From assembly GCA_964106915.2 (NCBI GenBank), contig OZ066914.1: a stretch of 64,000 nt of DNA. One strand, given 5' to 3'. Of this stretch, positions 38,460-47,083 are shown one piece after another (within the stretch, counting starts at the first letter, position 1; each line of letters starts with the position of its first letter). Below the pieces are notes generated by a model. It worked only from the letters and a program-made list of their open reading frames with translations. It ran no database searches and was not told the origin of the DNA. Made by a program: the position numbers and the translations under genes. The DNA comes from Podarcis gaigeae (taxonomy: Eukaryota).

Positions 38460-38520
38460 CGCAAGAAGAGCGCAGTCACATACCTGAACAGCACAATGCA
38501 TCCTGGGACACGTAAACGAG
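38460..38520 (+). CDS. PHF21A: PHF21A coding exon ([20 protein letters not shown]-), N-terminal half of the AT-hook
   Basis: GACTAAC branch point, pyrimidine tract, AAG acceptor; GTAGGT donor at 38521; 61 nt, phase 0/1. Confidence 0.96.
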
Positions 38521-40245: not shown

Positions 40246-40292
<47 letters not shown>

Positions 40293-40317
40293 TATTATTA
40301 TTATTATTATTATTATT
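40246..40317. repeat. (AAT)n immediately followed by (ATT)n, a palindromic microsatellite
   Basis: Read directly from the sequence. Confidence 0.95.
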
Positions 40318-41411
40318 TTATTTATTAGTCTTTGGCAGCTTTTGGCATTTTGAAAATAAGGTGATGGTCTCATTGCAGTTTATATTGAGCAGGCTTTACT
40401 TTACCCAAAAATTGCTGCCATAACTGCTCAGTTCAGCTATTAGTGCATTTCCCCAGGAGCTCAGATGTTCAGAGGAGCCCTTCTTTCCTTGCATAATTTG
40501 TTTCTCACCTGAAGCAAAATTGGATGTACTGGGTTTTTTTGCACTGATGTTGGCTTTCTGTCCCTCAACACACAGAGGGCATTGGCCTTCAGTGCCACTT
40601 TCCATCAGAGTTGTTAGGTGCCATTTACTGAAGATAATGATTACAATGCATGTTTAATTTGATCTTCCTGCCTCTTTTCTCAGTCTCTAGCTTCACTTAT
40701 TGACTGCTTAAATATCTTTATATATATATATATATATATTCCTCTCTGAGCATATGCCTCTCATCAATCATCAGAGTAGTGGTAATGCAAAAGACAAAGA
40801 TTGGTGTCTCCTACAGTGTTGTGATTTCACTTGGAATAATAGCACAATTTATCGTTGAGTTATATCTTCCTACAGTCAGCAGGATAGGATTTTATCTTAA
40901 CTCTTCATACTTGCAGATTTGCTTTGTTGAGGCTTTCTCCCACCTAGGCTACCATGCAGCTCCTTTTGCTGAGAGAGATCTCATGGGGTTGCAGGCTGTA
41001 ATTTTCTCTGGCATTTGTGGAATGTTGAGTTTTTCTTAGCACAAAGGTGGTATTTAGATGTAGGTTTCACCTTAGGCTCACTGAGGGTGATTTACCAATG
41101 GTCATAACAATGTGATGGAGATACCATGATAAATTAGAGTGGTAGAAATCATGGCAGCTTTTCTTTGCCAGTGGAATTTGGGGGTGGTAAGTTAAAAGTT
41201 AAAGACATTAGTGTGGTTATAGAGATATATTGGGAGTAGCGCTCTTTCTGAAGGCATGTGTTTTCTCTCTTGTGATACCATCCTTCCTTACACATTTCTC
41301 CTTTAAGTGCCATAAAAATAACTTTACAGTCCTGACTTGGCTTTCTTTCACTCGTGACTATAATACTAACTTCTTCTCTGTACTACATCACTTCCTTTTT
41401 TTTCATGCTAG

Positions 41412-41434
41412 CCAATGAGGAGCACTGGCCAAAG
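41412..41434 (+). CDS. PHF21A: PHF21A alternative 23-nt microexon (ANEEHWPK), neuronal isoform, mutually exclusive with the next exon
   Basis: TACTAAC at 41364-70, long pyrimidine tract, TAG acceptor, AAG|GTATGT donor; phase 1/0 like the next exon; peptide matches the recalled mammalian neuronal PHF21A exon. Confidence 0.9.
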
Positions 41435-41486
41435 GTATGTAAGATTATTTCCCCTCCCCTTTTTGTTCCCTTTTGTTAATGTGTAG

Positions 41487-41650
41487 GTCGTCCACCTAAA
41501 TACAACACGGTGCTGGGGTTTGGGGCTCTGACCCCCACATCCCCTCTGTCCAGTCATCCTGACTCCCCTGAAAATGAAAAGACAGAGACCACATTTTCTT
41601 TCCCCGCAACTGTTCATCCTGTGTCCCTGCCCAGCCCCAGCTCCACAGAC
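41487..41650 (+). CDS. PHF21A: PHF21A canonical exon completing the AT-hook ([20 protein letters not shown]...SPSSTD)
   Basis: TAG acceptor, GTAAGT donor at 41651; 164 nt, phase 1/0; joins the previous exon to give RKRGRPPK. Confidence 0.96.
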
Positions 41651-46927: not shown

Positions 46928-47083
46928 GGTGATATCCATGAAGATTTTTGCAGTGTTTGCAGGAAAAGTGGGCAGTTGCTGATGTGTGACACGTGCTCAC
47001 GTGTGTATCACTTGGACTGTCTGGACCCACCTCTGAAAACTATTCCCAAGGGCATGTGGATCTGTCCCAAATGTCAAGACCAG
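46928..47083 (+). CDS. PHF21A: PHF21A PHD-finger exon ([52 protein letters not shown]), unmethylated-H3K4 reader
   Basis: C4HC3 PHD pattern; TAG acceptor, GT at 47084; 156 nt. Confidence 0.98.

Follow-up and report, generated by a model that had tools for sequence, protein, structure and literature searches.

The 64,000-nucleotide stretch of Podarcis gaigeae DNA analysed here (the window) contains, within PHF21A, the lizard orthologs of the mammalian neuronal microexon and of the AT-hook exon that it replaces. In the account that we consider probable, the joining of the two exons is likely blocked because the predicted branch point of the AT-hook exon lies on, or next to, the microexon donor, and mutual exclusion also needs a regulated choice between donors and the decay of by-products. 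PHF21A is a neurodevelopmental disease gene, whose neuronal isoform limits synapse formation in mice. In the literature found, seen in part, the exclusion of its two exons is so far unexplained, and one minigene failed to reproduce it. The overlap of donor and branch point, taken together with a composite exon described below, provides a testable account, under which a variant at any of the 13 leading positions of the spacer is expected to affect both isoforms. The isoform switch itself is already published and catalogued, and the lizard ortholog, which is already annotated in databases, adds little; the interest of the case comes from the predicted overlap of branch point and donor, from the composite exon as a third product and from a microexon in the paralog PHF21B, rather than from squamate conservation.

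Anatomy and identity of the PHF21A switch region

The features of the region are collected in Table 1. On re-reading the sequence, the exon coordinates, the 52-nt gap and the shared phase 1/0 that had been proposed in a first-pass annotation were all exact. The AT-hook core R-G-R-P, with its basic flanks, spans the 38520/41487 junction as RKR-GRPPK, and the use of the microexon replaces this with RKR-ANEEHWPK, so that the hook is broken and removed as that annotation had claimed. A Pfam search of the canonical exon alone did not detect the AT-hook. The two exons are unlike each other (23 vs. 164 nt, with unrelated peptides of 8 vs. 55 residues), and a mutually exclusive pair of the duplicated-exon type was ruled out by this dissimilarity of length and sequence.

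Table 1. Elements of the PHF21A switch region, numbered as in the window
Feature	Position	Strand	Remarks
Upstream constitutive exon (equivalent of mammalian E13)	38460..38520	+	ends ...RKR + G, phase 1; bears the first half of the AT-hook
Perfect TACTAAC, predicted microexon branch point	41364..41370	+	A at 41369, 43 nt 5' of the acceptor; 7/7 to consensus
Long tract rich in pyrimidines, set back from the AG	41371..41404	+	
UGC adjoining the AG, SRRM3/4-type enhancer motif	41406..41408	+	meaning of the motif taken from the literature, seen in part
PHF21A microexon, 23 nt, (A)NEEHWPK, phase 1/0, E14-n ortholog	41412..41434	+	between TAG and GTATGT
Spacer, 52 nt, starting with the microexon donor GTATGT	41435..41486	+	
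Canonical exon (E14-c), 164 nt, GRPPK...STD, phase 1/0	41487..41650	+	between TAG and GTAAGT; completes the AT-hook core R-G-R-P
PHD-finger exon, beginning in phase 0	46928..47083	+	best PDB match 2puy, PHF21A, E 3.6e-33

Candidate exons were scanned in the whole window as YAG..GT pairs enclosing 3-27 nt (3273 and 2621 for the + and - strands, respectively), with four filters (donor, pyrimidine tract, UGC and branch motif) that were picked after the locus had been seen. The acceptor at 41412 was the sole one on both strands to clear all four, and it did so twice, with the 23-nt donor and with an overlapping 27-nt donor. The latter lies within 41435-41444, 4 nt 3' of the microexon donor, and gives a 27-nt microexon that is out of frame.

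The microexon acceptor has a UGC between branch point and AG, a set-back branch motif and a pyrimidine tract, and the exon falls in the 3-27 nt range. It shares these traits with the SRRM3/4-dependent neural microexons (10.1101/2024.09.17.613571, PMC12871342), which are described as having a strong set-back branch point, a long pyrimidine tract, a UGC beside the AG and an unstructured acceptor region; the predicted branch point is 43 nt from the acceptor here, as compared to reported medians of 45-47 nt, and the region is likewise unstructured when its folds are compared to those of shuffled sequences. Unlike those microexons, that of PHF21A is 3n+2 in length and is swapped for another exon, instead of being a frame-preserving cassette. 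The mammalian PHF21A microexon has been linked to SRRM4/nSR100 (10.1101/2023.10.20.563357, PMC3464207, PMC5891588) and is listed as nSR100-dependent; the first of these sources links it to PTB too. SRRM3/4 may control the exon also in the lizard. Counts of RBFOX, NOVA, QKI and PTB motifs in the flanking introns, made without conservation data, gave no informative signal. Single TGCATG sites of the RBFOX type occur at 40647 and 46292, in the distal upstream and downstream introns, and are candidates for the distal elements invoked in the minigene study discussed below.

The gene is PHF21A and not PHF21B. In fact, named PHF21A gave 1127 summed tblastn bits on the window and 241 on the paralogous locus, while named PHF21B gave 248 and 789, respectively. 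Squamate PHF21A maps over the remaining exons at 74-100% identity, the peptides of microexon and canonical exon are of the non-snake squamate type, and the microexon peptide is the same in the annotated Anolis, Hemicordylus and human isoforms. The feature is almost certainly real and the lizard ortholog of the known mammalian PHF21A switch. With the E14-n/E14-c pair of mammalian PHF21A/BHC80 (PMC11864812, PMC11605454, PMC12234916) it shares gene position, exon lengths of 23 and 164 nt, phase 1-0, microexon peptide, split AT-hook core and upstream UGC. The human pair is catalogued in PMC5740500 as MXE cluster 544 (23 and 164 nt, frame 1-0), and PMC11605454 terms the two PHF21A exons mutually exclusive. 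The earlier statement that mammalian neurons use a microexon isoform of PHF21A is borne out for mouse and human by PMC11864812, which also reports that the change of GRP to ANE causes the loss of DNA and nucleosome binding in mammals.

A survey of the best 120 of 1531 homologs, which reflects database annotations and not tissue data, showed that the segment between upstream exon and PHD finger is the 8-residue one in 62/120 proteins, the canonical one in 42/120 and a two-residue one in 1/120; the remaining 15/120, without the upstream pattern that was used, include two canonical forms and one read-through model. The lack of doubly included proteins among these best 120 was discarded as evidence, because a frameshifted join would escape annotation. 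Proteins of the microexon form are annotated in 8 squamate species, namely Anolis, Hemicordylus, Sphaerodactylus (with the peptide ATEEHWPK) and five snakes, as well as in birds, turtles, monotremes, marsupials and human, and 8-residue equivalents are found in two named teleost PHF21A proteins. The proposed conservation of the switch in squamates holds for annotated proteins (8 species). In snakes the microexon peptide is ANEEQC[PQ]K (P0061, P0070, P0103, P0111, P0114 and P0120; five species), with replacement of the His-Trp pair that is kept in nearly all other amniote matches. The fish-type PHF21A models P0166, P0171, P0173 and P0179 have the 8-residue segment followed directly by the exon that comes after the PHD finger, without the PHD exon.

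Reading frames, spacer and donor choice

The frame stays open when only the microexon is used (RKR-ANEEHWPK-GDIH) and when only the canonical exon is used (RKR-GRPPK...STD-GDIH), and meets a stop in the next codon when both are skipped. The joining of the microexon to the canonical exon produces a premature stop at 41529, 119 nt 5' of the next junction. The frame logic of the first-pass annotation, according to which joining both exons shifts the frame, is thus right for joining, but it overlooked a product that retains the spacer: the composite exon, in which the microexon runs on through the spacer into the canonical exon, measures 239 nt (3n+2) and also preserves the frame. In Podarcis gaigeae this composite meets an in-frame TAA at 41477-41479, 171 nt 5' of the next junction, unlike in bats and cats, where the retained spacer is an open frame.

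The composite is present in annotated proteins. In a set seeded by one bat read-through peptide (P0126-P0160), 29 of the 35 show splicing from the upstream exon to the microexon, followed by the spacer, which is left in, and by the canonical exon, all in frame, and the RefSeq models come from Myotis, Hipposideros, Desmodus, Sturnira, several cats and Crocuta. These models were annotated automatically, and it may be that they derive from RNA that was not fully spliced. In the third form of bats and feliforms (P0126, P0131-P0155, P0157, P0159, P0160) a 73-nt spacer is kept, and the AT-hook core is broken while the other canonical residues are retained.

The adenosines of the lizard spacer are at +3, +7, +8, +10, +13, +44, +45, +51 and nowhere else, and the stretch from +14 to +43 is an A-free pyrimidine tract; as a whole, of the 52 nt of the spacer 8 are G and 36 are pyrimidines. 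No adenosine is farther than 13 nt from the microexon donor unless it lies within 9 nt of the canonical acceptor, and therefore any branch point within the spacer would lie 13 nt or less from the donor, or too near the AG. The threshold distance between donor and branch point is given as about 50 nt (PMC5740500, PMC7969005), and for every usable spacer adenosine the distance is below it, the branch point itself being weak and predicted. In fact, the candidate canonical-exon branch points in the spacer match the consensus at 3/7 and 2/7 positions, and considering this poor match the canonical exon might branch elsewhere.

The distance from donor to branch point is a likelier and stronger block than intron size. 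That the gap is below the usual minimum intron size is accurate as a measurement (52 nt) but weak as an argument, considering that human introns of 37-65 nt do get spliced, 12/15 of the validated ones being G-rich (PMC4463651), and that the gap is longer in mammalian models. A comparison of the spacer across amniotes had been called for in the first-pass annotation; the comparison made here, with mammalian models, showed that 52 nt is not general, since these have 70, 71, 73 or 74 nt (22/141 stored proteins, comprising gene models and unnamed ORFs). These lengths were read from read-through protein models of mammals other than human, a set that is biased to species with a stop-free spacer in a suitable frame; the commonest, 73 nt, comes from bats and cats. 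The short gap likely prevents the joining of the two exons, yet alone it does not make them exclusive.

The 5' end of the spacer is conserved: VCK opens the mammalian read-through peptides and that of the window alike, and a mouse guide for intron 13 given in PMC11605454, compared by eye with the donor region of the window, matches it at 18/20 bases, including the adenosines at +7, +8, +10 and +13. According to the same source, the neurons of mice that lack the microexon produce the canonical form at a comparable level. Its return on deletion of the microexon means that mouse neurons do not silence the canonical exon independently. The deletion probably leaves the spacer in place, since the guide would cut at the donor, and canonical splicing after it fits a branch point inside the spacer and an exclusion exerted in cis by the microexon.

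A human minigene with native spacer and shortened flanking introns gave both exons in most neuronal products (PMC12234916). Its authors invoke distal intron elements that were removed from the minigene, and the text of that paper, in the part available, is silent on spacer removal in the products containing both exons. We infer that these products correspond to the composite exon; if the spacer was instead spliced out, the steric block fails in mammals. The spacer cannot stop the composite from forming, because the latter requires no spacer splicing. A steric block halts joining, and the choice between microexon donor and canonical donor must still be regulated. The first-pass reading of a switch enforced both sterically and by frame thus survives in that the joined product frameshifts and joining is likely blocked; as a complete explanation it falls short, since the composite is in frame in bats and cats and the minigene included both exons. 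Its term "hard-wired" is overstated on the same grounds: the composite is annotated in both groups, and a minigene with the native spacer was not exclusive.

In the mechanism that we propose, the microexon would be skipped outside neurons and a weak branch point at spacer positions +7 to +13 would serve the canonical acceptor, whose use would yield RKR-GRPPK and a DNA-binding hook. In neurons, SRRM3/4 would act at the UGC to bring the microexon acceptor into use, and U1/U6 assembled on the microexon donor would cover or crowd the spacer branch point, turning the canonical acceptor off in cis. Should the canonical donor be chosen over the microexon donor, the composite 239-nt exon would be formed, with a stop and predicted decay in the lizard and with an open frame in bats and cats. 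Anatomy, frames, stops and orthology come from this analysis, neuron-specific use and loss of DNA binding from mammals; branch-point position, steric occlusion, SRRM3/4 control and decay are what we infer for the lizard.

Exons that exclude each other sterically are known (alpha-tropomyosin 2/3, alpha-actinin and OGDH 4a/4b, PMC7969005; 57 predicted human clusters, PMC5740500), and most of them are duplicated exons similar in length, whose branch point lies far off in a longer intron. PHF21A differs from them in pairing a microexon with an unrelated exon, and in a predicted branch point that overlaps the very donor. The gene is absent from the supplement of PMC7969005, and a spacer or branch-point mechanism for PHF21A was not found in the literature searched, as far as its accessible parts go; the 57 steric cases of PMC5740500 may include it.

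Alternative accounts of the exclusion

A fully hard-wired switch, in which short spacer and reading frame alone are enough for mutual exclusion, would agree with a gap of 52 nt, shorter than the 65 nt given as a threshold for the lengths of human introns (PMC4463651), with the frameshift on joining and with the return of the canonical form after deletion of the mouse microexon. We consider it unlikely, because the composite annotated in bats and feliforms keeps the frame without spacer splicing, the mammalian spacer models reach 70-74 nt, and the human minigene lost exclusivity in spite of its native spacer, which its authors blame on the removed distal intron segments. Somewhat less likely still is the opposite view, that the spacer is a spliceable ultra-short intron and that exclusivity comes from trans-acting regulators and decay of the frameshifted double inclusion alone. 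The splicing of human introns of 37-65 nt (PMC4463651) speaks for it, the minigene sentence of PMC12234916 can be read as true double inclusion, and the stop of the joined product, 119 nt 5' of the next junction, means that decay would hide this product. However, the G-rich composition of 12/15 validated ultra-short introns contrasts with a spacer that has just 8 G among its 52 nt, 36 pyrimidines and no A from +14 to +43, and the composite models retain the spacer though both flanking introns are removed.

An RNA secondary structure, either a local hairpin or a docking/selector pairing, might hide one of the exons; the minigene outcome, as reported, points to distal intron elements, and one MFE structure would allow pairing between the C-rich spacer and runs of G in the canonical exon. 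This possibility appears improbable, since four folds of the region were not more stable than shuffled sequences (z +0.61, +1.87, +1.02 and +0.89), and the 25 longest of 147 inverted repeats between 38400 and 47100 are mostly simple repeats, with no arm in 41340-41650. A head-to-head (AAT)n/(ATT)n microsatellite at 40246-40332, in the intron 5' of the microexon, forms a long perfect inverted repeat. It is hardly credible that this lizard keeps the microexon as no more than a silent remnant: the drift of the peptide in snakes (ANEEQC[PQ]K) speaks for it, but here donor, acceptor, UGC and a perfect branch motif are all intact, the peptide is identical to the human one and microexon isoforms are annotated in 8 squamate species. 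The occlusion of a spacer branch point, combined with regulated donor choice and decay, is the reading that we retain.

A homologous microexon in PHF21B

The PHF21B gene of the same genome contains a 23-nt exon of phase 1/0, encoding ANEDPSWQ (G000:C9:3580643-3580665, locus L015), in the same place as the PHF21A microexon, with the matching upstream exon (phase 1) before it and the PHD exon (phase 0) after it. It ranked best among 100 open 23-nt candidates and has a CTAAC, a UGC-AG and a GTATGT donor; across the acceptor, 17 nt are identical between PHF21B and the PHF21A window, as compared to 9-12 nt in 200 overlapping control stretches. Unlike in PHF21A, no AT-hook exon follows: it was searched in the 4596-nt interval of PHF21B and not found. 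As read from the sequence, skipping of the PHF21B microexon would lead to a stop in the second codon, and the exon is needed to keep the frame.

The proteins of the PHF21B cluster (alligator, monotremes, sea bass and trout) are consistent with this arrangement. Both flanks are present in 18/21, the 8-residue segment occurs in all 18 of these, and the hook core RGRP/KGRP is found in 0/21. The AT-hook is present in named brachiopod, hemichordate and lamprey homologs, and in many of the unnamed ones among the 45/146 with both landmarks. These comparisons suggest that the hook is ancestral, that the microexon predates the A/B split and that PHF21B lost the hook exon; on the same sequence evidence, it is likely that the microexon is older than the duplication and that PHF21B froze the neuronal form. 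A published description of the PHF21B microexon was not found in our search of the openly accessible literature.

More tentatively, and with rather less confidence than doubt, we suggest that the microexon was gained by an AT-hook ancestor and that the two copies then took different paths. PHF21A, with both exons kept, would have become a switch that sets U1 against U2 over the same few nucleotides; PHF21B, having lost the hook exon, would have kept the microexon as an on/off gate. SRRM3/4 would then at once remove the hook of PHF21A and turn PHF21B on in neurons, with bats and cats adding a third hook-less form. PHF21B is reported in PMC9431697 to be mainly neural; its microexon, a possible reason for this, would also be a clean example of a single splice form becoming fixed after gene duplication.
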